64,000 bases of DNA from Candidatus Uhrbacteria bacterium (GCA_018673485.1 JABHCP010000002.1:1502-65501), one strand, 5' to 3'. Positions 13,905-59,408 are shown, numbered from the stretch's first letter. Notes: a model not told the origin generated them from the letters alone. Numbers and translations: made by a program.

Positions 13905-14012
13905 ATGTGTTTATTATATCGCAGGTAGTAGGAAGTAGGAAGTAGAAAATAGAACACAAAAAGTCTCGATCGCTCGAGACTTTTTACTTTAACTATAAAC
14001 TTTGACCTTTAT

Positions 14013-14843
14013 CTATTCAGTACAATCGTCAGCATCGTCTCCGACGTAGATTGCTCCAGAGTTTGCACTGTCGTATCCGTCGTAGAAGCTGAATGTTCCG
14101 TCTTCATCAAATGTTTCAATGTATTCAACTGCCGCTGCCATTGTTCCACTTCCCCATGTTAGGTTGTCTGCTGTGACTGAGTGATTATCACTGTCATTGT
14201 TGATGAATCGTACACCTTGCCCTACTTCTATTCCAGCGCAGATTGGATCAAATCCATCTGAGTCTATTACGATCTCTGCAGGAGCTAGCAGTCCTTTATC
14301 ATCTCCAATGTTTAGTGCGCTCGCTTCTTCTTCATCTGCGTCATAGTCGCCGATTTCAGCAATAGCGTCACCTACTGTGTAGTTTGAGAAAAATCCGTCT
14401 GGTACATCATCAATCATTGTGTTCCAAGAAGATCCATACATATCAATAGCCACTTCCTCAGTTGTAACGTGTCGTAGCGTTCCGCCAGCTGCGATTGCGT
14501 ATGTTCTATGGTCAGATGTAACCTTTACCATCTTTACGCCTGGTTTATATGTTACATTCGCACCAATTTGGATTTTAGCTAGGTCAGAGTCCGAGATCCA
14601 TTCAACTGATTCAAAGTCGCTGTACCAAGTGAAGTATGTTTTGTCATTTGGGAACACGTAGCGTAGCCCGTCTGCCCCTATGTAATAAACAGCAGTGAAA
14701 GTTTCTCCTCGAACTAGGTCGCCGGCCTCAATGTCATCGTAGCTAGTAAGAGCTTGTGCTTGTTGGATGCCAAAGAAGGCACCAAAGGCCATTAGAATCG
14801 CCACAAGAGCGATAGCGGATCGTTTGATCGTTGAAGTATTCAT
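14013..14843 (-). CDS. secreted acidic hypothetical protein
   Basis: Signal peptide MNTSTIKRSAIALVAILMAFGAFFGIQQAQA; D/E-rich. Confidence 0.55.
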   Translation of the reverse strand: MNTSTIKRSAIALVAILMAFGAFFGIQQAQALTSYDDIEAGDLVRGETFTAVYYIGADGLRYVFPNDKTYFTWYSDFESVEWISDSDLAKIQIGANVTYKPGVKMVKVTSDHRTYAIAAGGTLRHVTTEEVAIDMYGSSWNTMIDDVPDGFFSNYTVGDAIAEIGDYDADEEEASALNIGDDKGLLAPAEIVIDSDGFDPICAGIEVGQGVRFINNDSDNHSVTADNLTWGSGTMAAAVEYIETFDEDGTFSFYDGYDSANSGAIYVGDDADDCTE

Positions 14844-14894
14844 AATAAAATGAGTGTTTAATTCCTGATTATTCTAACATGTATTATTTGATTC

Positions 14895-15995
14895 TCAAAC
14901 ATCATAAGTGGACAGACTGTTGAGGGCCTTTGCTGGATCTTTTGCTTTCCAAATGACCGAAGATACGCAAAGCTGTTGGGCCCCAGCGTTAATTATGCTC
15001 TGTACTGAGTCTTGATTGATGCCACCGTCAACGGAAATCGGGATATTTGGGTATTTCTTTGTTACTTTTTTGATTTTCTTGAGGATTTTTTTACCTAGAA
15101 ATGATTGGCCTGATGCACCTGGGTGTACGCCCATTATTAAAATCGTATCGAGTAAATGCACGAGTGGCTTTATGATCTTGATCGGAGTTTCGGGATTAAG
15201 AGCCAGGCCTACATCGAGTCCTAGATTTTTTGCATAAGCAAGAATTGGTTTCAATGGTTTGTCGATCTCCGCATGGATTATCACGCGCCTGAGTGTTGGA
15301 ATGTTGAATTTCCATTCCTCGATTATTGGTAGGGGATCGAGGGCCATGAGGTGAAGCTCAATCTCGGGCAGATCTTTGATTTTTGATATTTGTTTGGCGT
15401 CAAAGAAAGAACGGGACTCAAACATCGAGTCGTCAAGTACATCGATTTGCCAGATTGAAGCTAGTTTACGAACTCCCGAGTTGAGAATTCGTTTTTTGAA
15501 TAGATCAAAATTTTGTACAAGGATCGCAGGCACTATCTCGACTTGTTTATTTTCAAATTGAGCGACCTGTGCCAGGCGACGCTTGTGACGTGCAGCTTGT
15601 TTGAAAGGAGTCTTTATAAATGTTTGCGCAATTTCGATTGGGTCGTCGATTGTTTCAATGCGTCCTGGAATGCAGATGATGTTTGCGTTGTCATCTTGCC
15701 GCATTGTGCGGGCTGCCTCGTTGGAGAATCCTAGACCGGCACGTACGTCATCAAATTTGTTGGCTGCAATGCAAACTCCCTCGGCATTTCCGCATGACAG
15801 AATTCCAAGCGCTCCTTTGTGGTTTGTGACGGCTCGAGCCACGTCGGCTGCATATTGTGGGTAATCATCTTTTGGATCCAGTTCATGAGCGCCAAGGTCT
15901 TCTACGTGGTGACCGTGCGTTTCGAGCTTTGCCTTGAGCGATTCCTTCATGATAAATCCTGCATGATCTGCTCCAATGTAAATAGTTTGTTTCAT
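14895..15995 (-). CDS. bifunctional ribose-5-phosphate isomerase B / ribulose-phosphate 3-epimerase fusion
   Basis: N-terminal RpiB (IYIGADHAGF ... SCGNAEGVCIAANK), C-terminal Rpe (MGVHPGASGQSF, SVDGGIN). Confidence 0.8.
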   Translation of the reverse strand: MKQTIYIGADHAGFIMKESLKAKLETHGHHVEDLGAHELDPKDDYPQYAADVARAVTNHKGALGILSCGNAEGVCIAANKFDDVRAGLGFSNEAARTMRQDDNANIICIPGRIETIDDPIEIAQTFIKTPFKQAARHKRRLAQVAQFENKQVEIVPAILVQNFDLFKKRILNSGVRKLASIWQIDVLDDSMFESRSFFDAKQISKIKDLPEIELHLMALDPLPIIEEWKFNIPTLRRVIIHAEIDKPLKPILAYAKNLGLDVGLALNPETPIKIIKPLVHLLDTILIMGVHPGASGQSFLGKKILKKIKKVTKKYPNIPISVDGGINQDSVQSIINAGAQQLCVSSVIWKAKDPAKALNSLSTYDV

Positions 15996-16005
15996 ATAGT
16001 CTTGT

Positions 16006-16506
16006 CTACCAATCAGTTACAGAACCTCGTTGTTTTTTTAATCGTCCCACCGTTTTTTTGTTTTTCAACCGTTTTTCTTTAGTGCTGCGTGATGGCTTTG
16101 TTACTTTTCGTACTTTTTGTATTTTTAGTGCCTCGCTAAGATATTCGTGCAGAATTTTCATCACGTCTCTTTTATTACTCGCGAGAGATTTGTTCCTTGT
16201 TGAAGTAATATAGATTTCGCCCTCACCTACAAATTGACTAGGTTTATTTTTCTGCATCCAATTCGTGACGCGTTCTTTTTCAGCGTCATTGAGTATTGTG
16301 GAGTCAGCAGGAGTCCAGCGAAACTCCGCAGTCTTTGCAGTTTTGTTTACATTTTGCCCACCAGGCCCAGCTGATGACTTTGTGACACTTATGGTTCCTT
16401 CTTGCCGGATAGCTTGCATGTCAGCTTTTGAAACTGATTCGCGTATTGTTTTCGGATTAGTACGTTCCAGTTGATCTATCCGTGAGTCTGTTTCTCTATT
16501 AATCAT
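16006..16506 (-). CDS. peptidyl-tRNA hydrolase ArfB-like (GGQ domain + basic C-tail)
   Basis: GPGGQNVNKT motif followed by K/R-rich tail. Confidence 0.7.
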   Translation of the reverse strand: MINRETDSRIDQLERTNPKTIRESVSKADMQAIRQEGTISVTKSSAGPGGQNVNKTAKTAEFRWTPADSTILNDAEKERVTNWMQKNKPSQFVGEGEIYITSTRNKSLASNKRDVMKILHEYLSEALKIQKVRKVTKPSRSTKEKRLKNKKTVGRLKKQRGSVTDW

Positions 16507-16626
16507 ATAGATTTGTTCATTCTCATTCTACCATTTTTGTGTTTTTTTACTGAAAGCGTAAACCCTACACCAGTCGGTGTAGGGCGCGGCCCTGCGAGTT
16601 GTACGAGGGGAGGGCGAGAGATGGGA

Positions 16627-22395: not shown

Positions 22396-22741
22396 TAAGG
22401 GCTTGTTTTGTTTTGGGTAATTTGTTATTATTTTGCAGCTGCGTACATTCGGTGCGTACAAACTTCATCTTTTGAGGCTGCCATGAGCGACAACTTCCTG
22501 ATCATCTTCATTTAGTCGCCCTCGCGCGACACACTTACGCAACACTGACCGTTTCTATATTGGTCAGTCTACGCCCGGTCTTCTTGATCTGGGCGTTTGT
22601 GGTTTTGCGAAATATAGAACCCAGACGAGATACTTAAGTCCCCCTCCTTTTTAAGGAGGGGTTAGGGGTGGTTATAAGATAGTTTCAATATCTGTGTTCT
22701 GTAGTCTGGGTTCTGTCTTCTGCATGTTGTATACTGTAATC

Positions 22742-23935
22742 ATGTTCGATAAAATCGAAAATAAGAAACGAAAGGAGACGTATCCATTTTTGGAATGGAT
22801 GGATCGTTTTGTGCTTACTGAGGAGAATTTGCGACAAGCAAGAGACGTTATGTATGAGCTTGAAGCTCAAGTGAGCGAGCTCTCACAGGTTCATAGGACT
22901 CCACAGTCAGCAAACCATCACGCAGAAGGTCCGATGATGACCAATCATATCGAGAATATGATTGCTGGTATTTTTGCGATTTGTGAAGGTAAGGTCTCAC
23001 TATCGCAAATTGAAGAATTTGCCCGCGAGAAGCATTTTAAAAATGAAATCGCAGAGTTGGAAGACGTAATTTGTGAAAATGCGGCAACGCTTAAGGCGTT
23101 TACGATGCTTCACGACATTGCCAAGTACGATACAATTTCGTTTAGCTCACCAGCGGGGTCAAAGGGTGCCGCTGAGGGTTTTTCCAAAGATTCACGACTG
23201 GATAAGAGCGCTTTAATCGATCGATATTTGAAATTGCTCAATGCATTTAAAGTTGATCTTCCTGATCTTGATTCTCGGCAAGTAGCGATAGACTTTTATA
23301 AAGAGTTTGAGATTAAGGTTCACTACAAGGGGCATGCAAAAGTTGCTGTATCGGATAAATATGAAGAAGTGCGCAATACCGTTGAAGATTTGTGTAGGTT
23401 AACTGCACGTGACCGCGAGATTTTAGCGCTTACAATCAAGTATCACATTGAGGTGATGGATTTTATTGGTGATAAACCTGATGGAGCTCGCTATTCATAT
23501 TTGCAACGCGTAGGGCAAAGGTCAGGAATCGATGGAAATGATTTATTAGATGTCCAAACCGCGGCCCTATTGCTCGATGCATTAATTGGAAGTATTGGAT
23601 ATCAGGATGGTGCGCTTGTGCCTGACATAGAGCTTGTATTGAACATGTTGCGTTCCGAGGAGCTTGCGGTTGTAGAGCGAAGACATGCGAGGGTCAAAAA
23701 GATCGAGAATAAAAAGCAAAGTGAGTTTAAGAAAATGTTAGAGAGCGTTGGGCTTGGCGGTGGTGATGTTTTTAAACTGTTAGATATTCCATTTGGCCCA
23801 GGGCGTGCTGGTATCATCGATAAGGTGCAAAATGCCGTCAAGACAGGTGATTTGTCTGAGCTGGGAGAGTATAAAGATAAGCTGTATTCCAAGGTTCAGC
23901 AGGCGCATTTGCTGTATGCCACCTCGATGGAGTAA
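22742..23935 (+). CDS. HD-domain hypothetical protein
   Basis: ANHHAEG ... TMLHDIAKYD ... HYKGHAK ... D pattern of HD phosphohydrolases; start moved to MFDKIENKK because the upstream portion overlaps a repeat element. Confidence 0.55.
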   Translation: MFDKIENKKRKETYPFLEWMDRFVLTEENLRQARDVMYELEAQVSELSQVHRTPQSANHHAEGPMMTNHIENMIAGIFAICEGKVSLSQIEEFAREKHFKNEIAELEDVICENAATLKAFTMLHDIAKYDTISFSSPAGSKGAAEGFSKDSRLDKSALIDRYLKLLNAFKVDLPDLDSRQVAIDFYKEFEIKVHYKGHAKVAVSDKYEEVRNTVEDLCRLTARDREILALTIKYHIEVMDFIGDKPDGARYSYLQRVGQRSGIDGNDLLDVQTAALLLDALIGSIGYQDGALVPDIELVLNMLRSEELAVVERRHARVKKIENKKQSEFKKMLESVGLGGGDVFKLLDIPFGPGRAGIIDKVQNAVKTGDLSELGEYKDKLYSKVQQAHLLYATSME

Positions 23936-23953
23936 GATGTCCTTACTTACCCT

Positions 23954-24080
23954 GTCATTCCCGACTCCGATCGGGAATCCATCGTTTATCAAATTCGACG
24001 AACTCACAGTAATGATGGGTCCCCCGCCTACCGGCAGGCAGGCTGCTTTCGACCCGTCTGACGGGTTTCGCAGGGATGAC
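23954..24080. repeat. compound hairpin repeat element (family A copy 3, with extra internal hairpins)
   Basis: gtcattcccgactccgatcgggaatccatcgtttatcaaat ... atgatgggtcc ... gcagggatgac. Confidence 0.65.
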
Positions 24081-33767: not shown

Positions 33768-34982
33768 TTATGATGATGGTTCGAGTGCTTTGATTGCCAT
33801 TAGTGTCCGACGGGCTGCGGCGTCCCAGGAGAAGATTCCTGGAATGTGGGCGCCGACTTCGTGTTCGTGTTTTAATCCTACGTCGATTGCGTGAACTAGA
33901 TCGTTTACATTGAATGGGTCGACGTATGTTACGTGCTCTTTTCCAACTTCTTGCATGGATCCAGTGAAGCTTGTTACTACATGTGTACCGCTGGCTATTG
34001 CCTCGACTATCGGTAAGCCGAAGCCTTCAAAAAATGATGGAAATAGGAACAGTTCGGCGTGCCTATAAAGTGTTGGTTTGTGTTTTTCTGGAATGTATCC
34101 AAGAACGTGAATATCATTTGTGTATTTTGAATTTTTGATGCGTTTGTGAAGATTATCATTCTTCCAACCTCGTCCGCCTGCAATCACTAGGTGCGGGACG
34201 GCAACCCCCTCCAGCTCCCCCTTGGGAAGGGGGAGGGTTGAAGCACGCCACTTTTCGTACGCTTCGACGATTGTCTCTATATTTTTGCGTGGTTCAAGAG
34301 TGCATAGACTTAAAATATATGGAAATTCAATATCGTGTTGTTTTAAATTGTTTGTGTCACAGGCTTGCTCTTTTGCTTTGAATCGATCATCTACTCCAAG
34401 TGGTGTAGTAACCATTCGATCCTCACCAACGCCCCACAAGGCGTTTAAGTTTTGCTTTGTGTTTTCTGACACTGTAAGAACGAGCTCTGCATGCTCGGCC
34501 AAATATCGTGGTCGTGCAGCTTTGTGCCAAATTCTATCTTTGACACGAAAGAAACTTGGAAAGAGCTCAAAGGAAAGGTCGTGCATGGTGATTACGTAGG
34601 GACGGTGCGTTTTGATGATGTTTATATTTGGGAAAAACCATAGATCTGGTTTTTCTGGTAAAAAATCTTCCAGTGTATGCGCTGTGAAATGAAGTTTTGC
34701 TGAAAGCGCACGATTGGGCATTTCGTGCTTAACGATTGTAATATTCTTTCCTGAAAACTTTGGAAGCTTAGAAAGTGTTTCCGGTGCTCCTGATGCAAAA
34801 AGAGTAAAACGATCATCCGGCGCAATTTTCGCCATGCGTTTTATAATTTCAATCGTGTACCGACCAATACCTGAATGTTGATCGGTCGTTAGATGTCGAA
34901 TGTCGATGGCGAGGTGCATGGATCTAATGATTAAGTGTTTAAGTTGTTTAAGGTGTTTATTCGAAATAAACATTTTAGACAT
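33768..34982 (-). CDS. glycosyltransferase family 4
   Basis: EGFGLPIVEAIASGTHVVTS motif. Confidence 0.85.
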   Translation of the reverse strand: MSKMFISNKHLKQLKHLIIRSMHLAIDIRHLTTDQHSGIGRYTIEIIKRMAKIAPDDRFTLFASGAPETLSKLPKFSGKNITIVKHEMPNRALSAKLHFTAHTLEDFLPEKPDLWFFPNINIIKTHRPYVITMHDLSFELFPSFFRVKDRIWHKAARPRYLAEHAELVLTVSENTKQNLNALWGVGEDRMVTTPLGVDDRFKAKEQACDTNNLKQHDIEFPYILSLCTLEPRKNIETIVEAYEKWRASTLPLPKGELEGVAVPHLVIAGGRGWKNDNLHKRIKNSKYTNDIHVLGYIPEKHKPTLYRHAELFLFPSFFEGFGLPIVEAIASGTHVVTSFTGSMQEVGKEHVTYVDPFNVNDLVHAIDVGLKHEHEVGAHIPGIFSWDAAARRTLMAIKALEPSS

Positions 34983-34991
34983 TTCATCAAT

Positions 34992-36107
34992 TTAAACAAT
35001 TCCCAAGACTTTCTTTCTGTGCTCTTCCCATTTATTTTGCACGTAGTCATGCATTTGTTTGTGATAGATTTGCGTTGAGAATTGCTTGGCGAATTCTCGA
35101 ATCTCCATTGGATCAAATTTTGTATGGTCAAAATGCAAAACCGTGTTTGCGATCTCTTCCCAATGTTGTTTGTCAAAAAATACTCCAGTTTTTCTATCGA
35201 TCACAGTTTCTGTCGCCCCACCTTTTCGGTAAGCGATCACTGGTCGGCCGGCTGCCATGGACTCAACTGGTGTAATTCCAAAGTCTTCTTCTTGAGGGTG
35301 CAAAAAAGCAATAGCGTCTTGAAAGAGTCGCGCCCGTTCCTCGTTAGAAACTCGACCCAAGAATTGAACATTGTCTCCTGCTCGCGCTCTTAAGTCTTTT
35401 TCGATTGGTCCAGAGCCAAAAACCTTAAGTGGTATACCAAGTTTTGTAAAAGCATCGATTACAAGGTCGTAGCGCTTGTATGGTACTAAGCGACCGCCAA
35501 TAAGATAATATTCTTTTGGAGTGTCAGTGACGCTGAACTGATCCACTTCAACGGGTGGGTGAATTACATCACTATCACGTCGATAGTATTTTTGTATTCT
35601 CCGTTTTACTGTTTCGGAGTTAGCGACAAAGAAATCAACACGATCAGCGGCGAGTCGGTCCCAGTTACGCAGGATACTCAGGATCGGGGGAAGAAGTTTT
35701 TTTATAGCTCTTGGAACTTTGAGCTCTTCAGTGTAGCTGTGAGTGTCTGACCACAGGTATCGTGTTGGTGTGTGACAGTAACAAATATGAAGAGCATCGC
35801 TTGATGGAATGACACCTTTAGAAAAAGCGCTGGTGCTTGAAACGATTACATCAAACTCTGAAAGGTCGTAGCTTTCAGTTGCTGTCGGCATGAGTGGTAA
35901 TAGCCAGCGAGAGCGTTTAAGCGCTCCAGGAATTTTTTGTAAAAAGCTGGTACGAATATCGCGATGCCCAAAGGAGGTGTCCATGATCGTTTTATCGTAT
36001 AACAGTGTAAAGGTTGGTGCGTTTGGCCAAATATTCTGCATGGCCTCAAGCACACGCTCAGCGCCACCGTTTTGGGTTAGATGATCATGTACTAAAGCTA
36101 CCTTCAT
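34992..36107 (-). CDS. glycosyltransferase family 4
   Basis: EDFGITPVESMAAGRPVIAYRKGG motif; start placed at MKVALVHDH. Confidence 0.8.
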   Translation of the reverse strand: MKVALVHDHLTQNGGAERVLEAMQNIWPNAPTFTLLYDKTIMDTSFGHRDIRTSFLQKIPGALKRSRWLLPLMPTATESYDLSEFDVIVSSTSAFSKGVIPSSDALHICYCHTPTRYLWSDTHSYTEELKVPRAIKKLLPPILSILRNWDRLAADRVDFFVANSETVKRRIQKYYRRDSDVIHPPVEVDQFSVTDTPKEYYLIGGRLVPYKRYDLVIDAFTKLGIPLKVFGSGPIEKDLRARAGDNVQFLGRVSNEERARLFQDAIAFLHPQEEDFGITPVESMAAGRPVIAYRKGGATETVIDRKTGVFFDKQHWEEIANTVLHFDHTKFDPMEIREFAKQFSTQIYHKQMHDYVQNKWEEHRKKVLGIV

Positions 36108-36213: not shown

Positions 36214-37614
36214 TTAGTAAGCGCCTTTTCCGAAGATTACTACTATTGGTGTTTTGAAAAGTATTATCAGATCAAGCCATGGGCTCCAGTTTTGAATGTA
36301 GTGCATGTCGAGTTGAACCTCTTCGTCAAAGTCCAAGTCTGCTCGCCCACCAACCTGCGCCATACCAGTCATTCCAGGTTTTATAGTTAGGACTTGTTTT
36401 TGATGAGGTTTGTAGTCTGCTACTTCTTCAGGCATGTGAGGGCGAGGACCTATTAAGCTCATGCGGCCGATGAGTACCATGAAAAGCTCAGGAAGCTCAT
36501 CGATTGATAGCTTACGAACTATTCGTCCAACCTTTGTAATGCGCGGATCATGAGTGAGTTTAAATAGTGGAGTACCACCGCGTTCGTTGCCGTACTTTTT
36601 AATAAACTCAGGATCAAAGCGATACTTGTGTGCGTCCTTGATCATGGATCGAAACTTCAGGTGATTGTAGCTCTTACCACCTTGACCAACACGTTTGTGA
36701 ACAAAGAATACGTTTCCAGGTTGTTCAATGAATAGAGCGAGTGCCGCCACGATCATGAATGGGGAAGTTAGGGTGATGAAGATTAGAGCCATAATTACGT
36801 CGAAACCACGCTTCCAAATCGCTCCCCACCCATCAAGTGGAGTTTTTGGAACCTCGATAATTGGTTGTCCAGCAAGAGTGTGTACCACTGGCTTCACTGC
36901 GGCGCTTGGAAATACTTCGGCTAGGTAATAAAAGTTTAGCTGTTCGTTGTCTGAGAATGATTTCGCGTCACGAATTTCTTTTTTATCTACTTCGGGATTG
37001 GCGAGCATGATGGCGTCGACCATTCCTTTATTCTTTAAAGCAAGAATTTTATCTATGGTGCTATTAGTGAAGTGATTTGTGTGTTCAACAACCTCGAATC
37101 CGATTCGGGGATGCTTTTGGAAATACTTTTTAAGTGACTGGCCGGATTTTGTTTTTCCAATAATCACTATTCGTTGCAGTCCAATGCCAAAGTTGCGCAA
37201 TGATCTTTGTAGCATGCGGATCAGGTATCTCTCGACTGAAATAAAAACTATCGCAAATCCCCAGACAGCGAGCACGATGAATCGTGAGTCAAAAAGCTCA
37301 CGCGAGAAAAATGCTATTCCAAGCACAACGGCAATGCTCGCCGATACTGCCAAGACTATTCTTACAAATTCAGTTGCCAGGCGCATTTGTCGGATGACGT
37401 ATAGACCAGAGAATGCAAAGATCAGCAAAAAGACAAAGCCTGATAGCGTAGTAACTTTTATGAACGCATCAAAAGGAAGGTCGAACACTACCGGCCGAAT
37501 TTCGCGAATCATTGGCGAGAATCGTACCCAGTATGCAAAGCAGGCTGCACCAACGAGTACGATATAATCCAGTGGTAATAATAAAGCTGCAAAAAATAAG
37601 TTTACGCGTTTCAT
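36214..37614 (-). CDS. polyprenyl-phosphate sugar phosphotransferase (bacterial sugar transferase, WbaP/EpsL-like)
   Basis: Multi-TM N-terminus; C-terminal KRGFDV ... PGNVFFVHKRVGQGGK ... ELPELFMVLIGRMSLIGPRP. Confidence 0.9.
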   Translation of the reverse strand: MKRVNLFFAALLLPLDYIVLVGAACFAYWVRFSPMIREIRPVVFDLPFDAFIKVTTLSGFVFLLIFAFSGLYVIRQMRLATEFVRIVLAVSASIAVVLGIAFFSRELFDSRFIVLAVWGFAIVFISVERYLIRMLQRSLRNFGIGLQRIVIIGKTKSGQSLKKYFQKHPRIGFEVVEHTNHFTNSTIDKILALKNKGMVDAIMLANPEVDKKEIRDAKSFSDNEQLNFYYLAEVFPSAAVKPVVHTLAGQPIIEVPKTPLDGWGAIWKRGFDVIMALIFITLTSPFMIVAALALFIEQPGNVFFVHKRVGQGGKSYNHLKFRSMIKDAHKYRFDPEFIKKYGNERGGTPLFKLTHDPRITKVGRIVRKLSIDELPELFMVLIGRMSLIGPRPHMPEEVADYKPHQKQVLTIKPGMTGMAQVGGRADLDFDEEVQLDMHYIQNWSPWLDLIILFKTPIVVIFGKGAY

Positions 37615-37711
37615 AGTGTTCTAATTATAGCGCAGAAGGTAGAAGGTAGAAAGTAGAAGGTAGTGTCAAAACTAAAACTACATTCTACATTCTACTCTCT
37701 ACATTCTATTT

Positions 37712-38185: not shown

Positions 38186-38362
38186 GGCAAACGATACCAT
38201 GATTAGCGCAGAATGTCAATGGGGGCAGACGTCAGAACCCAGACGTCAGACTACAGTTTAGTGTTATGACTGGATTCTGACGTCTGTATTCTGGGTTCTG
38301 TAAAAACAGTGATCCCCCGGACGTGGTCCGGGGGATAAGTGGGTCGTAGGGCTCGAGCCGTG

Positions 38363-38866
38363 CTAGTTGTCGCGGCAGTACTCATGCAATGCGGCCTGCA
38401 GATCCGCGACCTTCCGGAGTTTTGACAGGCCAACTCGGCACACACCTGTGCACGTGAACAGGCCTCGATCGCAGAACTCATGGCACCGTTCGGGGATTGC
38501 GAGGCAGAATTCACGCAAGGTCGTGGCTGTGACCATCTTGATCATGGCCGTGGGGTCGAGCGTGGTCATGCGAGCGACCGTCATGAAGGTGCGCTCGATC
38601 TCCGAGTATGCGATCTTGCAGCGCTCGGCGAGCGCGGTGGCTACGGCTGCCGTGACCTGCTCGCCGGTCTTCATGTTGAAGATGATGCTGTGCGAGGGAA
38701 GTGTGCCATCGGGCAGCACATCCTCCAGGTCAGTGAAGTGCACGAGCGCACGCTGGTGGTGCGACTTGAGGCGGCGCCACTGGCGTTGCGGGATGATGTC
38801 GAGGCACGAGTTGGTCGGGCGACCAGGGTTCGCGCTGGTGGGCGAGGAGGGGACAACTGCGGACAT
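38363..38866 (-). CDS. GC-rich (about 62%) hypothetical Cys-rich protein on an island flanked by inverted-repeat elements
   Basis: C-terminal C-x6-C-x3-C-x6-C-x3-C cluster; start codon uncertain (ORF opens inside the right-flank repeat); strong hairpin atcccccggac-gtg-gtccgggggat at 38313-38337. Confidence 0.4.
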   Translation of the reverse strand: MSAVVPSSPTSANPGRPTNSCLDIIPQRQWRRLKSHHQRALVHFTDLEDVLPDGTLPSHSIIFNMKTGEQVTAAVATALAERCKIAYSEIERTFMTVARMTTLDPTAMIKMVTATTLREFCLAIPERCHEFCDRGLFTCTGVCRVGLSKLRKVADLQAALHEYCRDN

Positions 38867-39129
38867 GTGGCAAACTCCTGGGGGAGATATCCGGGTTTCT
38901 GTTTCAGCTTGAGGGCTGCATGGAAGCCAGGCGCAGGTTGCACTTGACCAGAAAAATATAGCAGTGTTGGCGAAGAATGTCAATGAGGACGGTAGAAGAC
39001 GTCAGATGTCAGACTTCAGAACCCAGTTTAAGGTGCTGATGATATGGTCGGTAGGGGTTGTGAATAAAACAAAAGAACCGGTACATGCCGGTTCTAATAT
39101 GGGTTCTGAAGTCTGTATTCTGGGTTCTG

Positions 39130-40110
39130 TTACAATACTACTCCAATCTTTTTCTTCACCTCTACCAACTTTGCTGTTGCTATTTTTTCTGCTGCTACAG
39201 ATCCATTTGCGATGATTCGTTTAAGCTCATCTTTATTCTCTAGTAGCTCTTTCATCTTAGCCTGAATTGGGTCCAGATAGTCACTTAGTGCTGTGGCAAG
39301 GTCGTCCTTGAGATTCTTCATTCCACCTTCGGCGTATTCATGCGCTAGGTCTTCACCTGACTTTCCAGTGCACAAGCTAAATATTGTCAGTAGGTTATAT
39401 AGTCCTTCGCGGCGTTCCTCAAATGTAATTATTTGCTCCGAGTCAGTCACGGCTGATCTGATCTTTTTGTGAACAATCTCGCGCTCGTCCATTAATGAGA
39501 TGTAGCTCTTGGCACTTGCCGCGCTTTTACTCATCTTTTTCTCAGGCTCAGTTAAGGACTTTAATCGGGCGCCGTGCTTTCTAATTATTGGCTTTGGTAT
39601 TACAAATGTTTCACCAAATGTTTTATTGAATCTTTGCCCTATGTCGCGCGTTATCTCAACATGCTGTTTTTGATCATGACCGACAGGCACACCCTCAGCA
39701 TCATATAAAAGAATGTCAGACGCCATCAGAATAGGGTAGGTGAACAAGCCAACAGAAACTGCATCTGCTTTGTCGCCTGATTTATCCTTGAATTGTGTCA
39801 TGCGCTTCATCTCACCCATGTGCGTTTGCGATTGCATGATCCAAGCAAGCTCCGTGTGAGCGCTGATTTGTGATTGTTGGAAGAGTACTGTCTTTGTTGG
39901 ATTGATTCCAGCGGCGAGATAAGCAGCTGCATTGAGCAAGATGCTCTCACTTAGTGTCTCAGGATTCTGAGGTACAGTAATCGAATGATAGTCCGCAATC
40001 ATTATGTAGAGCTCGTGTTCGTCTTGGAGTTCGACAGCAGGAATTAGGGCACCAAATAAGTTGCCGATGTGCAGAACGTTTGTTGGTTGTATTCCAGTTA
40101 GGACGCGCAT
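39130..40110 (-). CDS. trpS: tryptophanyl-tRNA synthetase
   Basis: HIGH-like (NVLHIGNLFGA) and KMSKS motifs. Confidence 0.9.
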   Translation of the reverse strand: MRVLTGIQPTNVLHIGNLFGALIPAVELQDEHELYIMIADYHSITVPQNPETLSESILLNAAAYLAAGINPTKTVLFQQSQISAHTELAWIMQSQTHMGEMKRMTQFKDKSGDKADAVSVGLFTYPILMASDILLYDAEGVPVGHDQKQHVEITRDIGQRFNKTFGETFVIPKPIIRKHGARLKSLTEPEKKMSKSAASAKSYISLMDEREIVHKKIRSAVTDSEQIITFEERREGLYNLLTIFSLCTGKSGEDLAHEYAEGGMKNLKDDLATALSDYLDPIQAKMKELLENKDELKRIIANGSVAAEKIATAKLVEVKKKIGVVL

Positions 40111-40202
40111 AGAAGGGTTTAACTTGTTGAAAATGTCTAAAATGTTTATTTTCGGATCAGTAGGACCAGTGTATTAAGTGTTTAGATTATACCAGAAAAC
40201 AC

Positions 40203-46160: not shown

Positions 46161-46247
46161 TGGCTGAATAGAAAGTATAAAGTACAAAGTTTAAAGTAGA
46201 TTTTAGAACCGGCGTATGTCGGTTCTTTTGGTCGTCACCCCAGAGCC

Positions 46248-49220
46248 TTGCCACATGTCAAAATACATGGTATTGTCGCGAGCGCTTACACTCATTGTCG
46301 ATTTGGTGGGGAGAAGTCGACATTCATAACCAATTTGCGTGTGAAAAACGAAGATAAATTGACTATTCGCGGTGCGCGAGTGCACAACCTTAAGAATATC
46401 GATTGTGATATTCCTAAAAATCAGTTGGTCGTAATTACCGGACTCTCAGGTTCAGGAAAATCATCATTGGCATTTGATACCATCTATGCCGAGGGACAGC
46501 GAAGATATATGGAGTCGCTCTCAAGCTATGCCAAGCAATTTTTAGAACTGCAAGACAAGCCAGACGTTGATGAGATTACGGGTCTTTCCCCAACGATTGC
46601 TATTGATCAGAAATCATCTTCACATAATCCGCGCTCAACAGTTGGAACAGTCACGGAGATTTATGACTATCTGCGTGTTTTATTTTCTCGTGTTGCAAAA
46701 CCACATCACCCTGACACTGGAAAGTTGATCGAGCAAAAGACATTGGAGGACATCGCAGCTCAAGTAATGAAGGCTGTTAAGGGAGGGGAAGTGATGTTGT
46801 TTGTTCCTATGGTTGAGAATCAGAAGGGAGAGCATAGTCAGGTTTTAATCGCTGCCAAGAATGCTGGCTTTGAAGAGGTTCGTTATGACGGACTAATGAT
46901 TGATTTGGATGAAGCGATTGGAATGCGTAAACAAAAAACAAAAGCACACACAATTGAGATTTTAGCGCACAGATTTGAAGATAATGAAGACGTTCCTATC
47001 GAGCGAATGCGCGTTATTTTAGAAAAGGCATTAGACCTTGGAAATGATCGTTTGATGATGTACCGCGATGACACTGGAGACGAAGAAGAGTTGGTACGAG
47101 GATATCATCTGCCAGGTGGAATGCAGATTCCTCAACTTGAACCGCGACTATTTTCATTTAACTCACCAGCTGGAGCTTGTCCTGAGTGTACTGGTCTGGG
47201 AGTGAAGTTGGTTTTGGAGCCTGATCTAGTGGTCCCAAATAAGCGTTTAACTTTAGCGCAAGGCGCAGTGAAGCCTTGGAGTAGAATTGCAGGAAACCAA
47301 AGCGGGTACATGGAAGTACTTAAGACCGTAGCAAAACGACAAAAGTTTAACATGCACGACCCGCTGGAAAAGCTTGCTAAGAAAAAGCTGGACATCGTGC
47401 TCTTTGGAACAGGAGACGATGAGTACGAAGTAGGAGGAAGCACTATCACGTTCCCTGGTGTTTTGGGGATGTTGGAGGCTAAGTATCGCGAAACTTCTAG
47501 CGAGTATGTTCGTAAGGAACTCGAGACCTACATGCGTTCAATGGTTTGCCCGGACTGTAAGGGGCAGAGACTTCGTAAAGAGGTTCTATTGTTTACTATT
47601 AATGGACAATCAATTGCAGATGTTGTTTCGCGACCTATCGAGGACGTGCCAGGGTTCTTTGACGACGTTTTAAGCGAAGCAGCAAAGTTGAATGGAGATG
47701 ACGGCATGTCTGGCGCGTACACCTTAGTGGTTGAGCGAGTCGCAAAAGAAGTTAGAGAGCGTGTGCAACACTTAATTGATGTTGGGCTTGGTTATCTAAC
47801 ACTCGATAGAAGTGCGATGACACTCTCTGGTGGTGAGTCGCAACGAGTTCGTTTGGCAACTCAGTTAGGGGCTGCACTTTCTGGAGTCATTTATGTGTTG
47901 GACGAGCCTTCAATCGGATTGCATCCGCGTGATAATGAACATCTCATTGAAACAATTAAACATTTGCGTGATCTTGGAAACACAGTGATCGTAGTTGAGC
48001 ATGACGAGGATATGATCAAGGCGGCTGACTATGTGTTTGATGTGGGGCCTGGTGCTGGAGCGTACGGCGGACAGATTGTGGCAGAGGGAACACCGGCGCA
48101 GATCATGAAAAATAAGGACTCGCTTACCGGAGACTACATGATGGGTCGAAAGACTCTAAAGGCTCCTAAGCAATACAGAAAGGGAAATAATAAAAATATT
48201 TCAATCGTTGGTGCCAACCAGCACAACTTGATAAATGTAAACGCAAGCATTCCGCTTGGAAGATTGGTGTGTGTTACAGGAGTTTCGGGGTCAGGAAAGT
48301 CAACATTGATTTTAGACATTCTGGGTAAGACTTTGTCTAAGCATTTTTATCGTGCTAAGGCTTATCCGGGTCAGCACAAGGAGATTAAGGGAATTAAAAA
48401 TATCGATAAGGTCGTAACAGTTGACCAGTCTCCGATTGGTCGAACTCCGCGATCAAACCCAGCAACATACACTGGAGTGTTTACTGCTATCCGTGACTTG
48501 TTCACTGATGTCTCTGAGGCAAAGTTACGTGGATATGATGCTGGAAAGTTTAGTTTTAACGTTAAGGGCGGTGGACGATGTGAGCCATGCGCAGGGGACG
48601 GACAGATTCGTATCGAGATGCAGTTCATGCCTGACGTGTATGCGCCGTGCCCAGAGTGTAAGGGGCAACGCTATATTCAGGAGGTGCTTGATATTCACTA
48701 TCGCCAGAAGAACATTGCAGACGTTTTGGATATGACTGTGGATGAAGCACGACGATTCTTTGCAGACCGCTCAAACATTTACGAAAAGTTGAATGTACTT
48801 CACGAAGTTGGGCTTGGATATTTAAAGCTCGGTCAGCCAGCTACAACACTTTCAGGTGGTGAGGCCCAGCGCGTTAAACTCTCAACAGAATTGTCACGAC
48901 GAGCAACTGGTAAAACACTTTACATTCTTGACGAGCCAACAACGGGGCTCCACTTTGACGACATTGAACGCTTGCTCGGAGTGTTGCATGCACTCGTTGA
49001 CAAGGGAAACACAGTTCTCGTAATTGAACACAACACTGATGTGATGAAGTCATCAGACTGGATTGTAGACATGGGACCTGATGGTGGAATAAAAGGTGGA
49101 AAAATTGTGGGAGAAGGAACACCAAAGGAAGTCGCCAAACTCAAGACTCATACCGGAAAGTATCTTAAAGAGGCATTTAAGAAAAAAGGTGTGGTAAGTA
49201 CGAAAAAGAAGAAGAAATAA
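46248..49220 (+). CDS. uvrA: excinuclease ABC subunit A
   Basis: Two ABC ATPase modules (GLSGSGKSS, GVSGSGKST), zinc-finger cysteines, LSGGE signatures; exact start uncertain (possible TTG/GTG near 46330). Confidence 0.9.
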   Translation: MPHVKIHGIVASAYTHCRFGGEKSTFITNLRVKNEDKLTIRGARVHNLKNIDCDIPKNQLVVITGLSGSGKSSLAFDTIYAEGQRRYMESLSSYAKQFLELQDKPDVDEITGLSPTIAIDQKSSSHNPRSTVGTVTEIYDYLRVLFSRVAKPHHPDTGKLIEQKTLEDIAAQVMKAVKGGEVMLFVPMVENQKGEHSQVLIAAKNAGFEEVRYDGLMIDLDEAIGMRKQKTKAHTIEILAHRFEDNEDVPIERMRVILEKALDLGNDRLMMYRDDTGDEEELVRGYHLPGGMQIPQLEPRLFSFNSPAGACPECTGLGVKLVLEPDLVVPNKRLTLAQGAVKPWSRIAGNQSGYMEVLKTVAKRQKFNMHDPLEKLAKKKLDIVLFGTGDDEYEVGGSTITFPGVLGMLEAKYRETSSEYVRKELETYMRSMVCPDCKGQRLRKEVLLFTINGQSIADVVSRPIEDVPGFFDDVLSEAAKLNGDDGMSGAYTLVVERVAKEVRERVQHLIDVGLGYLTLDRSAMTLSGGESQRVRLATQLGAALSGVIYVLDEPSIGLHPRDNEHLIETIKHLRDLGNTVIVVEHDEDMIKAADYVFDVGPGAGAYGGQIVAEGTPAQIMKNKDSLTGDYMMGRKTLKAPKQYRKGNNKNISIVGANQHNLINVNASIPLGRLVCVTGVSGSGKSTLILDILGKTLSKHFYRAKAYPGQHKEIKGIKNIDKVVTVDQSPIGRTPRSNPATYTGVFTAIRDLFTDVSEAKLRGYDAGKFSFNVKGGGRCEPCAGDGQIRIEMQFMPDVYAPCPECKGQRYIQEVLDIHYRQKNIADVLDMTVDEARRFFADRSNIYEKLNVLHEVGLGYLKLGQPATTLSGGEAQRVKLSTELSRRATGKTLYILDEPTTGLHFDDIERLLGVLHALVDKGNTVLVIEHNTDVMKSSDWIVDMGPDGGIKGGKIVGEGTPKEVAKLKTHTGKYLKEAFKKKGVVSTKKKKK

Positions 49221-50758: not shown

Positions 50759-50762
50759 AAAA

Positions 50763-52037: not shown

Positions 52038-52119
52038 AGGGAGGAGGGTTTAAATGTTTAAGTTGTTTAAGGTGTTTATTTCGGAATAGACAATTTAAAC
52101 ATTTTCAACATTTTAAACA

Positions 52120-53067
52120 TTATAGTTTTGGTATCGACTTCAGTACTTCTTTAAGTTTTTTTGGAATTGGTGCGGTGAATGTTTTTGTCTCACCTGAAGG
52201 AAGAGTAATTGTTAGCTCTCGTGAGTGCAGGAATATCCGATCGATGTTCATCAGTTTTTGATCACGTTGTTTGTACAGAGGGTCACCAACAATCGGATGC
52301 TTGATAGCAAACATGTGCGCGCGGATTTGGTTGGTTCGCCCGGTTTCGATTTTTACGTTAAGTAGTGCGTGATGCGGGAATTGATCAACCACTTCGTAGT
52401 GCGTTATTGCAGATTTACCACCTTGCGATTCTGGTCGCGCTGCCATCTTACCGGTGGACTTAGAACGTCCGATAGTTAGTGTGATAGTGTCATACGGTTT
52501 TGGCATTGTGCCGTGAACCAACGCCGTGTATTCCTTTGTTGTTTTTCTTTCTTTGAATTGTGCTTTTAAGTGCTCAAAAGCTTTTTGTGTTTTTGCAGTG
52601 ATCAAAACACCGGACGTGAACTTGTCGAGTCTGTGCACGATCCCGGCTCGTTTTTCGTCATCACCAACTTTCTTCACCTTACGGTTTCGAGCAACTAACG
52701 CATCGCGCAAAGTTGTGTCTGTGCTGATCTCTGTTGGATGTACTAGCAGGCCAGCAGGTTTGTTTACAACTAAAACATCCTTATCTTCATATATAATATC
52801 GAGCTCGACAGTTTTCTGCTTTTTGAAGAGCTTTATCTTAGGTTTCTCGATGTGATATTCAATTTTATTCTCACGACTAACCTGTGTTTTTTTGTTGGCA
52901 GTTTTACCATCAACCAAAACTTCTCCTTTTTCTATCATCTTAGTGAGTTTCGATCGACTCAAATCAAGCATAGACGCCAAGACCTTATCCAAGCGCTCAG
53001 GTACTTCATTTGTAAGCTTTAATGTTTTCATAACGGCAGTATCGCACGATTGACGCGCATGGGTCAA
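52120..53067 (-). CDS. RluA-family pseudouridine synthase (RluD-like, S4 domain)
   Basis: HRLDKFTSGVLITAKT catalytic motif; probable true start MKTLKL at 53031. Confidence 0.85.
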   Translation of the reverse strand: MTHARQSCDTAVMKTLKLTNEVPERLDKVLASMLDLSRSKLTKMIEKGEVLVDGKTANKKTQVSRENKIEYHIEKPKIKLFKKQKTVELDIIYEDKDVLVVNKPAGLLVHPTEISTDTTLRDALVARNRKVKKVGDDEKRAGIVHRLDKFTSGVLITAKTQKAFEHLKAQFKERKTTKEYTALVHGTMPKPYDTITLTIGRSKSTGKMAARPESQGGKSAITHYEVVDQFPHHALLNVKIETGRTNQIRAHMFAIKHPIVGDPLYKQRDQKLMNIDRIFLHSRELTITLPSGETKTFTAPIPKKLKEVLKSIPKL

Positions 53068-54264: not shown

Positions 54265-54341
54265 TGGTGGGTCTGGCTGGACTCGAACCAGCGACCACGG
54301 AGGTATAAGCTCCGCGCTCTAACCAACTGAGCTACAGACCC
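54265..54341 (-). tRNA. tRNA-Ile (anticodon TAT)
   Basis: RC GGGTCTGTAGCTCAGTTGGTTAGAGCGCGGAGCTTATACCTCCGTGGTCGCTGGTTCGAGTCCAGCCAGACCCACCA; perfect cloverleaf; anticodon loop CTTATAC. Confidence 0.75.
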
Positions 54342-55159: not shown

Positions 55160-55177
55160 GATACGCGCAAGTAAGGA

Positions 55178-55884: not shown

Positions 55885-55917
55885 GTTGTTTCATGTTTTG
55901 TAGTAGAATGTAGCAGT

Positions 55918-56910: not shown

Positions 56911-56924
56911 AAAGAACTTCTAAC

Positions 56925-56959
56925 AAAAAACCGCCATTCATACGAAAGGCGGTTTTTTG
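56925..56959. terminator. conserved terminator hairpin (copy 2 of 3)
   Basis: aaaaaaccgccattcatacgaaaggcggtttttt. Confidence 0.65.
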
Positions 56960-56964
56960 ATTCT

Positions 56965-57666
56965 TTAGTAAGTGATTGTATTTCCGACAATTGGCAGGCT
57001 TCTTATTCCACGAGCTCCACGCATGATACCTCTGTCATCTGACCAAGAGACTGCTGAGGCTATGCTTGGAATGGATACCATTATTGAGTCATCGGAGACA
57101 GCGCTCGCTGCATATGTATCTATGTATAAGCTGAAGGTCTGAGCTGCTCCACCGTTTGGAAGGCGAATCATGCTAGGGAAGGTAGCTCGTGCGAAGGCTA
57201 CGGTCTCAGAGCCAACGCATGGTAAGAGCTCGTCATTAAAGAATTGCCAAGCTCCTGATGCGTCAACGCGATTTCCTCCAGTGTCATAGATTGCCCATTC
57301 TGATGTGCTGCCTAATTGATCACAGGTGTTCCATAGCGATCCAGCGTTGTCTGTTGTATTTATCTCAAACAGAGTTTCGCCTACTTCAATGTTCACGCGC
57401 TGTGGGGCAACGGAATACCTTAGTACCTCGCTGTGTCCTGGGACGCTAACTCCACTCGGTGAGCTAGCTGCAAGCGCGAAAATTGGAACCATGCGGCCTA
57501 AAATGAGCATGAAGCCGGCAGCGGCAATAGCTCCTGCGACTACAGCGACGGCAACTGCCACCGCGACTTTTGTTCGCGTCTTTGTCTTTGTGATTGTCAT
57601 TGTCATAGTAAAGATATTTATTAATGAATACATTATAGCATCACTATGTTGGCGATGTATATTCAT
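56965..57666 (-). CDS. hypothetical exported protein with (AV)n-rich TM anchor
   Basis: KVAVAVAVAVVAGAIAAAGFMLILG anchor; likely start MTMTITKTK. Confidence 0.5.
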   Translation of the reverse strand: MNIHRQHSDAIMYSLINIFTMTMTITKTKTRTKVAVAVAVAVVAGAIAAAGFMLILGRMVPIFALAASSPSGVSVPGHSEVLRYSVAPQRVNIEVGETLFEINTTDNAGSLWNTCDQLGSTSEWAIYDTGGNRVDASGAWQFFNDELLPCVGSETVAFARATFPSMIRLPNGGAAQTFSLYIDTYAASAVSDDSIMVSIPSIASAVSWSDDRGIMRGARGIRSLPIVGNTITY

Positions 57667-57669
57667 TGC

Positions 57670-57702
57670 AAAAAACCGCCTTTCATACGATTGGCGGTTT
57701 TT
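57670..57702. terminator. conserved terminator hairpin (copy 3 of 3)
   Basis: aaaaaaccgcctttcatacgattggcggttttt. Confidence 0.65.
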
Positions 57703-59143
57703 ATATTTGAGTTTTTATATATTCCTGTGCTTGGGGTCTAGTTTGAATTTTGTTTACTAGTTGCAGGTCGCGAACTTTGTCGAGTAAGTCGCGGAAGTGT
57801 ATTCCGGGTTCAAGTCCGAGTTCGATTAGATCTTTTCCAGAGACAAGTTTTGGATAGCACTGCGAGCAGTAGTGGTCGTATAGTCGCTTTGCGTTGTGGA
57901 TCCTCTCTGATGTCGCTGAGTGTGCACCTTTAACTAGTTCGATTGCGTGGATGAAGGCTAATAGCTGCTGACCCTTTTGTGTGCAGAACATTTTTTCAAA
58001 AGCACTTGGGCGCATTCCGGCTGGATCTTCAGTTTCAAGAATGTGTCTGTTGTCCAAAAGCCATGCGACAACATCACAATCAATCCGTGCCCAGTGGTTT
58101 GTAGGGAATTGATGTAAATACAATTGTCGACATAGGTGAAGCGCGTGCTCGTGCTCGTCTGAAAATACACTTAGTGCGGCAATTAGAGCATTGGGGTGAA
58201 TCTTGTCGAGTTTGTGACGGGCTAAAAAGCTTGGTCGGTGCAACATGTGCAGTAGGTCTTTTGTTTTTTCAAAAGCATTACTGTTGTCGTCGAGCGTGAT
58301 TGTTTTCTGCTCATGCAACCAAGGTATGAAAAGTTCGATTGCGCCTGCTTCGTCCCAAAGGTTGAGCGTGTGAACGGGGTGGGATATAAATCCAAGCAAG
58401 AATTCCTTACCAATTGCATCACGTGGAATTACATATTTAAAAGTACCATCGTCAGTCACTACTTTGTTATTCAAGACGTCCAGGTTATTACAAATCGCTG
58501 ACCAAGTTTCTTGTTCAATTCCAAACCTGAGTTGAGACGCAAACCTGAGCCCTCGTAATATTCGAGTAGCATCCTCGTAGAAGCGAGCCTCAGGGGAGAG
58601 CACGGTCCTGATTAATTGGTGTCCTAAATCCTGCATTCCATTGTGTGGATCGATGAGTTCACGAGATTGAATATCAAACGCAATTGCATTAATTGTATAG
58701 TCGCGACGTGAAAGATCTTCTTTGATTGATAATCTAAAGTCGGTTTCAACTACCTGATCTTTGCGACCGCTTCGGTGTTCATCTGCAATCTGTTCAGTTC
58801 GAGGCAGAGCGATGTCGATTGGCTGCATGTCGCGACATCCGTGTGGAGTGAACTTGAATGTTCCAAATCGTTCTCCTACAAAACGCACTGCACCTTGGCG
58901 TGAGAGCCACCGCTCAATTGTTTTTGCAGGAACACCTCGCACAACAAGATCAACGTCTTCAGGACTAGATCCTAAAAGAACATCACGAACAGTTCCACCG
59001 ACTAAATAGATTTGTGCCTCAGGGTGATCGCTTAAAAACAAAGATGTCCACGTCAGGCGCGGTTCAGACTCAACAAAATTAGCAACGCGAAATTCAGGCG
59101 CTGCGGATTTATGAGCATAGTGAATAAGTAATCCTCCGATCAT
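57701..59143 (-). CDS. cca: CCA-adding tRNA nucleotidyltransferase (pol beta NT domain + HD-like C-terminal region)
   Basis: YLVGGTVRDVLLG ... DVDLVV head-domain motifs. Confidence 0.85.
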   Translation of the reverse strand: MIGGLLIHYAHKSAAPEFRVANFVESEPRLTWTSLFLSDHPEAQIYLVGGTVRDVLLGSSPEDVDLVVRGVPAKTIERWLSRQGAVRFVGERFGTFKFTPHGCRDMQPIDIALPRTEQIADEHRSGRKDQVVETDFRLSIKEDLSRRDYTINAIAFDIQSRELIDPHNGMQDLGHQLIRTVLSPEARFYEDATRILRGLRFASQLRFGIEQETWSAICNNLDVLNNKVVTDDGTFKYVIPRDAIGKEFLLGFISHPVHTLNLWDEAGAIELFIPWLHEQKTITLDDNSNAFEKTKDLLHMLHRPSFLARHKLDKIHPNALIAALSVFSDEHEHALHLCRQLYLHQFPTNHWARIDCDVVAWLLDNRHILETEDPAGMRPSAFEKMFCTQKGQQLLAFIHAIELVKGAHSATSERIHNAKRLYDHYCSQCYPKLVSGKDLIELGLEPGIHFRDLLDKVRDLQLVNKIQTRPQAQEYIKTQI

Positions 59144-59408
59144 GGAAATATTATATCAAAAGTATTCAGTATGCAGTAGGCAGTATACAGTTTTTGTCCC
59201 CCTCCTTTTTACCCTTCAATATAACTCAGGGTACCCTGAGCGAAGTCGAATGGGTAAGGAGGGGCCAGGGGTGGTTATAATATAGCTTCAATCTTTCGAG
59301 TTAAAAAGCAAACGACCCTGAACCGTAGTGATTCAGGGCGCGGCCGCACCCGACGAATTCGGGGGCGGTTGGAGATGTAGTCAAATTGGGATTACGGATT
59401 TGGCATGA

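Follow-up and report, generated by a model that had tools for sequence, protein, structure and literature searches.

The 64,000-nucleotide stretch of Candidatus Uhrbacteria DNA analysed here (GCA_018673485.1, JABHCP010000002.1:1502-65501; hereafter, the window) contains three minus-strand genes whose start codons are closely preceded by a TATAAT hexamer and, upstream of it, by a short array of tandem 7-nt units, or heptads. They encode an SPW-repeat membrane protein (site 1), a bacterial sugar transferase (site 2) and a CCA-adding enzyme (site 3). An earlier note on this DNA had described these sites as a recurrent architecture in which the heptads take the place of a -35 or UP element at promoters of leaderless type. 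All three sites read as described, and the arrangement recurs in a further, plus-strand case at 22691-22742. The features concerned are the following.

13494-13904, minus strand: gene for the SPW-repeat membrane protein (site 1)
13913-13918, minus strand: site 1 -10 box TATAAT, then aaacacat (8 nt) and ATG at 13904-13902
13925-13945, minus strand: site 1 heptad array, CTACTTC CTACTTC CTACTAC; periodicity 0.81
13957-13980, minus strand: intrinsic terminator of the gene upstream of site 1, hairpin gtctcgagcgatcgagac and T-run
36214-37614, minus strand: gene for the bacterial sugar transferase (site 2)
37624-37629, minus strand: site 2 -10 box TATAAT, then tagaacact (9 nt) and ATG at 37614-37612
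37636-37663, minus strand: site 2 heptad array, CTACCTT CTACTTT CTACCTT CTACCTT, then CTGCGC; proximal arm of an inverted pair
37678-37708, minus strand: site 2 distal arm, GAATGTAG AGAGTAG AATGTAG AATGTAG
57701-59143, minus strand: gene for the CCA-adding enzyme, PolyA_pol family (site 3)
59150-59155, minus strand: site 3 -10 box TATAAT with extended -10 TGa, then atttcc (6 nt) and ATG at 59143-59141
59160-59187, minus strand: site 3 heptad array, TATACTG CCTACTG CATACTG AATACTT, then TTGA
22691-22729, plus strand: fourth array, CTGTGTT CTGTAGT CTGGGTT CTGTCTT CTGCATG; periodicity 0.61
22730-22735, plus strand: fourth-site -10 box TATACT, preceded by TTG; 6 nt, then ATG 22742

At sites 1-3, an in-frame stop codon lies two to four codons 5' of each ATG, so that an earlier start is impossible. 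The hexamer is as close to the start codon as had been claimed, but the measured distances (8, 9 and 6 nt) set the range at 6-9 nt and not at 7-9 nt. None of the three sites displays a Shine-Dalgarno (SD)-like motif or a -35-like hexamer, the best TTGACA match at 16-19 nt spacing being 3/6. Two candidate -35 elements were rejected: one hidden in the arrays, with a best TTGACA match of 3/6, and the TTGACA at 37669-37664 for site 2, which lies 34 nt from the -10 box, a distance that the deletion of whole heptads cannot bring to 17 nt. At site 1, a degenerate in-phase unit (CTGCGAT) continues from the array into the -10 box, and the terminator hairpin is flanked by a degenerate purine-rich arm (13981-14010) and by the heptad array; this purine arm adds little to the fold of the terminator hairpin (z = -1.6). 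At site 2, the two arms together form a hairpin of 6-bp blocks with a single mismatch between blocks (-31.6 kcal/mol, z = -6.5). Leaderless, -10-proximal promoters are characterised by a TANNNT hexamer ending about 5-10 nt 5' of the start codon and leaving no room for an SD sequence. A strong 7-nt periodicity directly 5' of the -10 box was found at four of the 12 leaderless-type starts in the window (13904, 22742, 37614 and 59143).

The window was compared with about 100 Uhrbacteria loci (L004-L127, ca. 1.3 Mb). Relatives collected via RNase J were Uhrbacteria/Patescibacteria metagenome-assembled genomes (MAGs), the closest of which are syntenic with the window, and MAG GCA_018644925.1, like several metagenome contigs, encodes identical copies of proteins of the window. 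Orthologous promoters retained the hexamer and its position. At site 2, TATAAT-9-ATG was found in 6/6 genomes (the window, L004, L005, L006, L079 and L081), with coding DNA 65-77% identical and all six proteins beginning MKR(V/I/A)(N/D)LF. At site 3, T(T)TGnTATAAT-6/7-ATG was found in 5/5 genomes (the window, L122, L124, L125 and L126); the proteins of the four relatives are 66-85% identical, site 3 proteins start with M(I/H)GGLLI, and each of the nine closest homologues of the CCA enzyme has a length of 480 aa. At site 1, hexamer and spacing are kept in 3/3 genomes, with TATAAT-8-ATG in L093 and TGgTATACT-9-ATG in L097. For all three genes, the bases flanking the hexamer vary among orthologues and the proteins align from Met1.

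This pattern extends to the lineage as a whole. Counting TATA[AC]T 5' of start codons that open reading frames (ORFs) of at least 100 codons, 24, 4, 21, 30 and 10 cases were obtained at spacings of 6, 7, 8, 9 and 10 nt from ATG, respectively, against a background of about 3 per position, and the same pattern was observed with the window left out. In the same loci, GTG starts exhibited no peak at spacings 6-10, and for TTG starts any peak was small (7 cases at spacing 6). A TGn motif at -15/-14 accompanied 70% of the start-proximal hexamers compared with 12% of other occurrences (Fisher p = 7e-30). Among the cited sites, TGa is present at site 3, and only the G at -14 is found at sites 1 and 2 (CGa and CGc). 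Across the lineage, these -10 boxes are usually accompanied by TGn and not by heptads. The spacing has maxima at 6, 8 and 9 nt, with a marked dip at 7 nt.

The TATAAT boxes are therefore well supported, by conservation and by these counts, as genuine -10 elements predicted to yield transcripts that are leaderless or have a leader of 1-3 nt. The leaderless reading of the -10 box proposed in the earlier note is supported by the conserved hexamer and spacing, by an enrichment that is strong only for ATG and by the TGn association. They would represent sigma-70-type promoters without a -35 element, usually with an extended -10 (TGn), from which transcription would begin at the AUG or 1-3 nt before it to produce leaderless mRNAs. 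Leaderless mRNAs arising from -10-proximal promoters are known in Streptomyces and Deinococcus, and reportedly occur in Mycobacterium tuberculosis (Cortes et al. 2013, cited in PMC12641261). Like these actinobacterial and Deinococcus promoters, those described here have a TANNNT ending 6-9 nt before the AUG, no SD sequence, no -35 and, commonly, an extended -10; they differ in their host, a member of the Candidate Phyla Radiation (CPR), and in spacings that peak at 6, 8 and 9 nt with the dip at 7.

Alternatively, TATAAT might not be a promoter at all, expression being driven by upstream promoters with the array and UAUAAU lying in the leader. All three genes do follow a co-directional upstream gene. 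Yet, in the array-free orthologues, the terminator hairpin and its T-run adjoin the hexamer. At site 2, the RNase P terminator T-run of L004, L005 and L079 passes directly into TG(g/t)TATAAT, so that no further promoter could be accommodated. With a hexamer that is invariant while its neighbours vary, a strong enrichment of TGn, and a positional enrichment that is strong only for ATG at 6-10 nt, we regard expression from upstream promoters as very improbable.

The arrays are no constant feature of these promoters. The orthologous promoters of L004, L005, L079, L081, L122, L124, L126 and L097 have the same -10 box and spacing with no array, the terminator T-run adjoining TGnTATAAT in these array-free promoters. 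At site 2, the CTACYTT array occurs only in the window and in L006, and is missing from L004, the closest relative, as well as from L005, L079 and L081; at site 3, no array was found in L122, L124 or L126. Arrays were also swapped between relatives. The CCA-enzyme promoter of L125 carries an inverted pair (GAATGTAG... / ...CTACCTT CTACTTT CTACTCT CTACATT CTGCGA-TATAAT) corresponding to the module of window site 2. Similarly, the site 1 array is of the CTACTTC type in the window, and the L093 orthologue bears the module of window site 3: over the 41 nt that begin with CTG and finish with TATAAT, site 3 and the region upstream of the L093 SPW gene are 90% identical, with unrelated flanks. Non-orthologous promoters thus share two types of module, each with a constant junction, CTGCGnTATAAT (window site 2 and the L125 CCA-enzyme promoter) and ACTTTTGnTATAAT (window site 3 and the L093 orthologue of site 1). 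The -10 box and its spacing, by contrast, belong to the gene; arrays are gained, lost or exchanged between close relatives while the promoter stays, which suggests a promoter that does not need them. The claim that a heptad array replaces the -35 or UP element thus finds no support: most orthologous promoters have no array, relatives have exchanged arrays, and arrays also occur at places other than promoters.

Our favoured interpretation, which we hold to be probable, is that two separable features lie side by side: -35-less promoters of leaderless type and an independent family of heptad arrays dispensable to these promoters. The arrays would be lineage-wide short tandem-repeat modules of about 31 nt, comprising some 4.5 units of 7 or 8 nt, often paired in inverted orientation and then able to form long, regularly bulged hairpins. 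These modules would occupy tolerated slots, namely the interval from a terminator to a -35-less -10 box, positions 5' of a -35, 5' leaders ending beside the start codon, the surroundings of terminators and, in relatives, helix P12 of the RNase P RNA. In a compact genome, a -35-less promoter right behind a terminator would leave a single slot 5' of the -10 box, where arrays may accumulate; the adjacency of array and -10 would then follow from the position of this slot between the two. Candidate functions are those of an insulator against read-through, a protein-binding site or, on read-through transcripts, a standby site for ribosomes that is rich in pyrimidines.

Arrays were found in several other contexts in the window.

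38226-38300, minus strand: inverted array pair of the CTGACGT/CTGGGTT type, directly 5' of the RNase P RNA promoter; fold z = -6.8
38219-38214, minus strand: TTGACA of the canonical RNase P RNA promoter, 17 nt, then TATCGT at 38196-38191; RNA at 38182-37751
38992-39133, minus strand: second copy of the array and promoter module, with arrays flanking the terminator hairpin of the tryptophanyl-tRNA synthetase gene; repeats D13, D19 and I10; z = -6.4
38983-38978, minus strand: TTGACA of the promoter adjoining the second module copy, 17 nt, then TATATT at 38960-38955
46172-46198, plus strand: AAAGTAT-type array after the stop codon (46160) of a pilin-like gene and before the terminator hairpin at 46204-46228
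downstream of 46172-46198, plus strand: canonical uvrA promoter, TTGCCA-17-TATTGT, also present in L004
13297-13326, minus strand: transketolase array, ATACTTT CAACTTT ATACTTT CAGCTAC; repeat D15; ends 4 nt before ATG 13291
52048-52121, unstranded: inverted pair of 9-nt arrays in the cytidylate kinase leader, downstream of TATAAT 52124
34931-35001 and 40117-40150: related 9-nt arrays

The RNase P RNA promoter ends 9 nt before the 5' end of the RNA and is conserved in relatives. The purine-rich array that had been reported at about 46165-46200 is real (46172-46198), but it is not at a promoter, since it lies between a stop codon and the terminator of the same gene. No -10 box was found between the transketolase array and its ATG, and most transketolase orthologues have a leaderless-type TATAAT or TATACT instead. 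The 9-nt pair at 34925-35003 had no significant fold (z = -0.2). Arrays also adjoin start codons in L013, L038 and L041, and in other Uhrbacteria arrays with genome-specific units lie immediately 5' of the RNase J start codon. In L035 and L039, cmscan alignments showed that arrays make up a long extension of helix P12 in the RNase P RNA; in the window, this helix is short and contains no array. The RNase P RNA region of L025 contains heptad-array hairpins at 12764-12817 and 13035-13110, apparently near P3 and in P12; this RNA was not reported by cmscan at the gathering threshold, and annotation could miss RNase P RNAs of this kind.

As a family, the arrays were well above chance. The Tandem Repeats Finder (TRF) program detected 11 arrays in the 9.4 kb of intergenic DNA of the window, compared with 1.13 in shuffled sequences, and 8 versus 0.25 for periods of 7 or 14, giving an overall 10- to 30-fold enrichment. 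Arrays with a period of 7 or 8 are common across Uhrbacteria and were also found in one Yanofskybacteria locus; unit families include CTACYTT, xTACTGx, CTGGGTT, AAAGTAT and others. Their length peaks at 30-34 nt (29/65), with about 4-4.5 copies, and none exceeds 50 nt. An inverted partner was located within 160 nt for 24 of the 65 arrays, compared with 4 in the control, and inverted pairs form hairpins of 6-bp blocks with single mismatches (z = -6.4 to -7.0).

Several observations weigh against simple coexistence of promoter and array. Near start codons, arrays are pyrimidine-rich on the sense strand in 21 versus 6 cases. Their density is 0.44/kb between co-directional genes compared with 0.09 for convergent and 0.16 for divergent regions; this bias is treated as suggestive only, since p = 0.001 is obtained by counting arrays, and counting regions gives a weak effect (24/410 versus 6/214). 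The adjacency of arrays to leaderless-type -10 boxes exceeds chance in the window, with the four of 12 starts given above, and across the loci arrays were found at 6.1% of leaderless-type versus 0.7% of other starts, half of the cases coming from the window. An identical -10 junction occurs at non-orthologous sites. The -10 association, strand bias, co-directional preference and constant junctions together hint at a function or at targeted insertion over passive tolerance.

One such function would be that of a working upstream promoter element, the array serving as a tandem binding site for an activator, a silencer or the RNA polymerase alpha subunit in place of the -35 or UP element. The above-chance association with -10 boxes and the constant junctions CTGCGnTATAAT and ACTTTTGnTATAAT fit this view, as do arrays spanning -18 to -50 at four leaderless-type promoters, arrays directly 5' of the -35 at two canonical promoters, and a length fixed near 31 nt, or about three helical turns. 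The nearest model is provided by the Vibrio cholerae ctxAB promoter, where TTTTGAT heptads serve as regulator-binding sites and strains differ in their copy number (bioRxiv 10.1101/2021.05.14.444153); both systems have tandem heptads directly 5' of a core promoter. Unlike those, the arrays described here are absent from most orthologous promoters and displayed no copy-number variation among the contigs compared. Most orthologous promoters keep the -10 box and spacing without an array, and one site has different array types in two relatives. Arrays also lie within RNase P RNA, in a gap between stop codon and terminator and in leaders 3' of promoters, and divergent regions, which have two promoters each, are poor in them. 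They are C/T-rich, and UP elements are A/T-rich. A role as promoter element hence appears unlikely.

The constant junctions could also be regarded as the mark of precise insertion next to the -10 box, since they recur in different genomes at genes that are unrelated. The arrays would then be previously undescribed mobile palindromic modules of tandem heptads in the CPR, inserted or copied by conversion against the -10 of -35-less promoters and acting as portable insulators or modulators between co-directional units; we advance this possibility as a speculative one. Dispersed, hairpin-forming palindromic modules are known in intergenic regions as repetitive extragenic palindromic sequences and bacterial interspersed mosaic elements (REP/BIME) and as repeats resembling miniature inverted-repeat transposable elements (MITE). 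As in these, inverted arms form hairpins, and unrelated loci carry copies that are almost identical, often beside terminators; the arms described here differ in being built of tandem heptads, and their flanks have diverged too far to delimit insertion boundaries.

Another hypothesis is that the arrays act in RNA, as a pyrimidine-rich standby or S1-type ribosome-loading site before an ORF devoid of SD sequence, inverted pairs being hairpins for processing, stabilisation or insulation; a role of this kind was proposed for the TAACTGA repeats of Beggiatoaceae. Start-proximal arrays are indeed pyrimidine-rich on the sense strand and adjoin the ATG of the window transketolase, of genes in L013, L038 and L041, and of many RNase J genes. 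An SD-like 4-mer between -20 and -4 is present in only 6 of the window's 56 ORFs of 100 aa or longer. The enrichment between co-directional genes, the stable hairpins and the tolerance of arrays within structured RNA point in the same direction. At sites 1-3, however, the arrays sit 3' of a terminator and 5' of the -10 box, and would be transcribed by read-through only; orthologues without arrays exist, and the enrichment in tandem regions is weak when counted by region. A role in RNA is accordingly a tentative proposal that we consider doubtful.

Precedents for such a location are available. Beggiatoaceae have TAACTGA direct repeats just 5' of start codons lacking a ribosome-binding site (RBS), for which binding by S1, Csp or CsrA was proposed (MacGregor 2015, PMC4679880), and Nostoc PCC 7120 has heptamer repeats close to promoters and to start codons (bioRxiv 10.1101/2022.06.06.494920). 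The Uhrbacteria arrays share with them two to six tandem heptamers a few nt 5' of starts without a canonical RBS, a placement found at the transketolase gene (4 nt), in L013, L038 and L041 and at RNase J, and not at sites 1-3, where a -10 box intervenes. In contrast to the Beggiatoaceae and Nostoc repeats, several unit families coexist per genome, inverted pairs are frequent, and some arrays lie 5' of a leaderless -10 box, so that they are outside the transcript of the proximal promoter. TAACTGA equals no TRF consensus unit in the window or the loci, the nearest being ATACTGA, which the site 3 array contains once.

Short tandem units at promoters also raise the question of phase variation, in which hypermutable simple-sequence repeats would modulate promoter strength. 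In Haemophilus influenzae, the hmw adhesin genes are preceded by 7-bp repeats and are phase-variable. No copy-number change was detected here among eight independent metagenome contigs for site 1 and three for site 3, contigs that are also otherwise identical. The units are imperfect, and the copy number keeps close to 4-4.5 even at diverged or non-orthologous sites, long expansions being absent. Phase-variable promoter strength is, in our opinion, hardly credible.

The array family belongs to a class of dispersed heptamer repeats that is already known, here in a CPR lineage. The cyanobacterial repeats known as STRR (short tandemly repeated repetitive) sequences have units such as CCCCAGT, TTGGTCA and CAACAGT, and STRR arrays occur in RNase P RNA helix P12. 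According to the title of a paper cited in PMC2858038, STRRs are placed within a gene. Dispersed intergenic tandem 7-nt units and the P12 insertion in L035 and L039 are shared with the cyanobacterial repeats; the units (CTACYTT, xTACTGx, CTGGGTT and others), the unrelated phylum, the fixed length of about 31 nt and the array-free P12 of the window set them apart. A cyanobacterial origin was rejected, as the HIP1 motif is not enriched in the window (3 versus 0.95 expected) and the relatives are Uhrbacteria. Since units and host differ from those of all systems compared, the resemblance is one of kind, not of homology.

Arrays of the STRR or TAACTGA kind are now found in a third, unrelated, genome-reduced lineage, with the P12 insertion in relatives, which makes a general origin or function of such repeats more plausible. 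Very little has been charted of promoters and translation initiation in CPR/Patescibacteria, few members having been cultured; in the literature searched, neither such arrays nor leaderless promoters or transcription start data were reported for Patescibacteria/Uhrbacteria. The comparative evidence points to a wide use of extended -10 promoters of leaderless type in Uhrbacteria, with rare SD sequences. This has a bearing on gene-start calling in these MAGs, where longest-ORF starts at leaderless genes may be systematically too long. At the fourth site, the longest-ORF call (22694-23935, plus strand) opens at GTG 22694, within the heptad array; the start is most likely ATG 22742, 6 nt after TATACT, and the resulting ORF (22742-23935) had no Pfam match.

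Two further leaderless-type starts of the window are associated with degenerate repeats.

55897-55917, plus strand: degenerate GTAG repeats, a weak case (periodicity 0.52), overlapping TAGAAT at 55904-55909; 8 nt to ATG 55918 of an AAA ATPase gene
6640-6690, minus strand: region of leaderless-type TATAAT at 6645-6640; 8 nt, then ATG 6631 of a DUF2090 gene

Upstream of the DUF2090 gene are degenerate units (CTACCAT TCTACAT CTACAAA), with a small hairpin between them and TATAAT. Several leadered genes have a pyrimidine tract just 5' of the start (..ccctATG at 13291 and 52037, ..cccttctATG at 40110, and ..cctccctATG in L093). Dispersed intergenic repeats of hairpin or palindromic form make up at least three more families (D1/I2, D12/I3/I9/I13 and D14), at the positions listed below; both copies of D14 precede a heptad array, then a -10 box, then an ATG.

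59197-59292, unstranded: D14 palindromic dispersed element, adjoining the site 3 array on its upstream side
22640-22689: second copy of D14, directly upstream of the 22691 array
5710-5800, 12301-12352 and 23944-23998; 4703, 10351, 13384, 40219 and 50705; 22652-22689 and 59255-59292: positions noted for these repeat families

Other features of the window were noted. A 206-aa, GC-rich ORF beginning with TTG (38363-38983, minus strand), partly conserved in L004, lies between the two modules combining arrays with TTGACA-17-TAT (38189-38315 and 38953-39144) and had no Pfam match. In the uvrA promoter and leader region (46247-46345, plus strand), the leader has a 27-nt insertion relative to L004, and the start of uvrA is probably GTG near 46343 and not TTG 46248. 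Opposite the cytidylate kinase leader (52038-52075, plus strand), a strong SD on the "wrong" strand (AGGGAGGAGGG-TTTAA-ATG) is followed by an 11-codon ORF (MFKLFKVFISE), an arrangement that the repeat sequence may have produced by chance. The window also encodes a T4SS-pilin domain protein, and a tRNA-Ile with anticodon UAU at 54265-54341 (minus strand). Bacteria normally read AUA with a lysidine-modified CAU tRNA, and a UAU anticodon is unusual.

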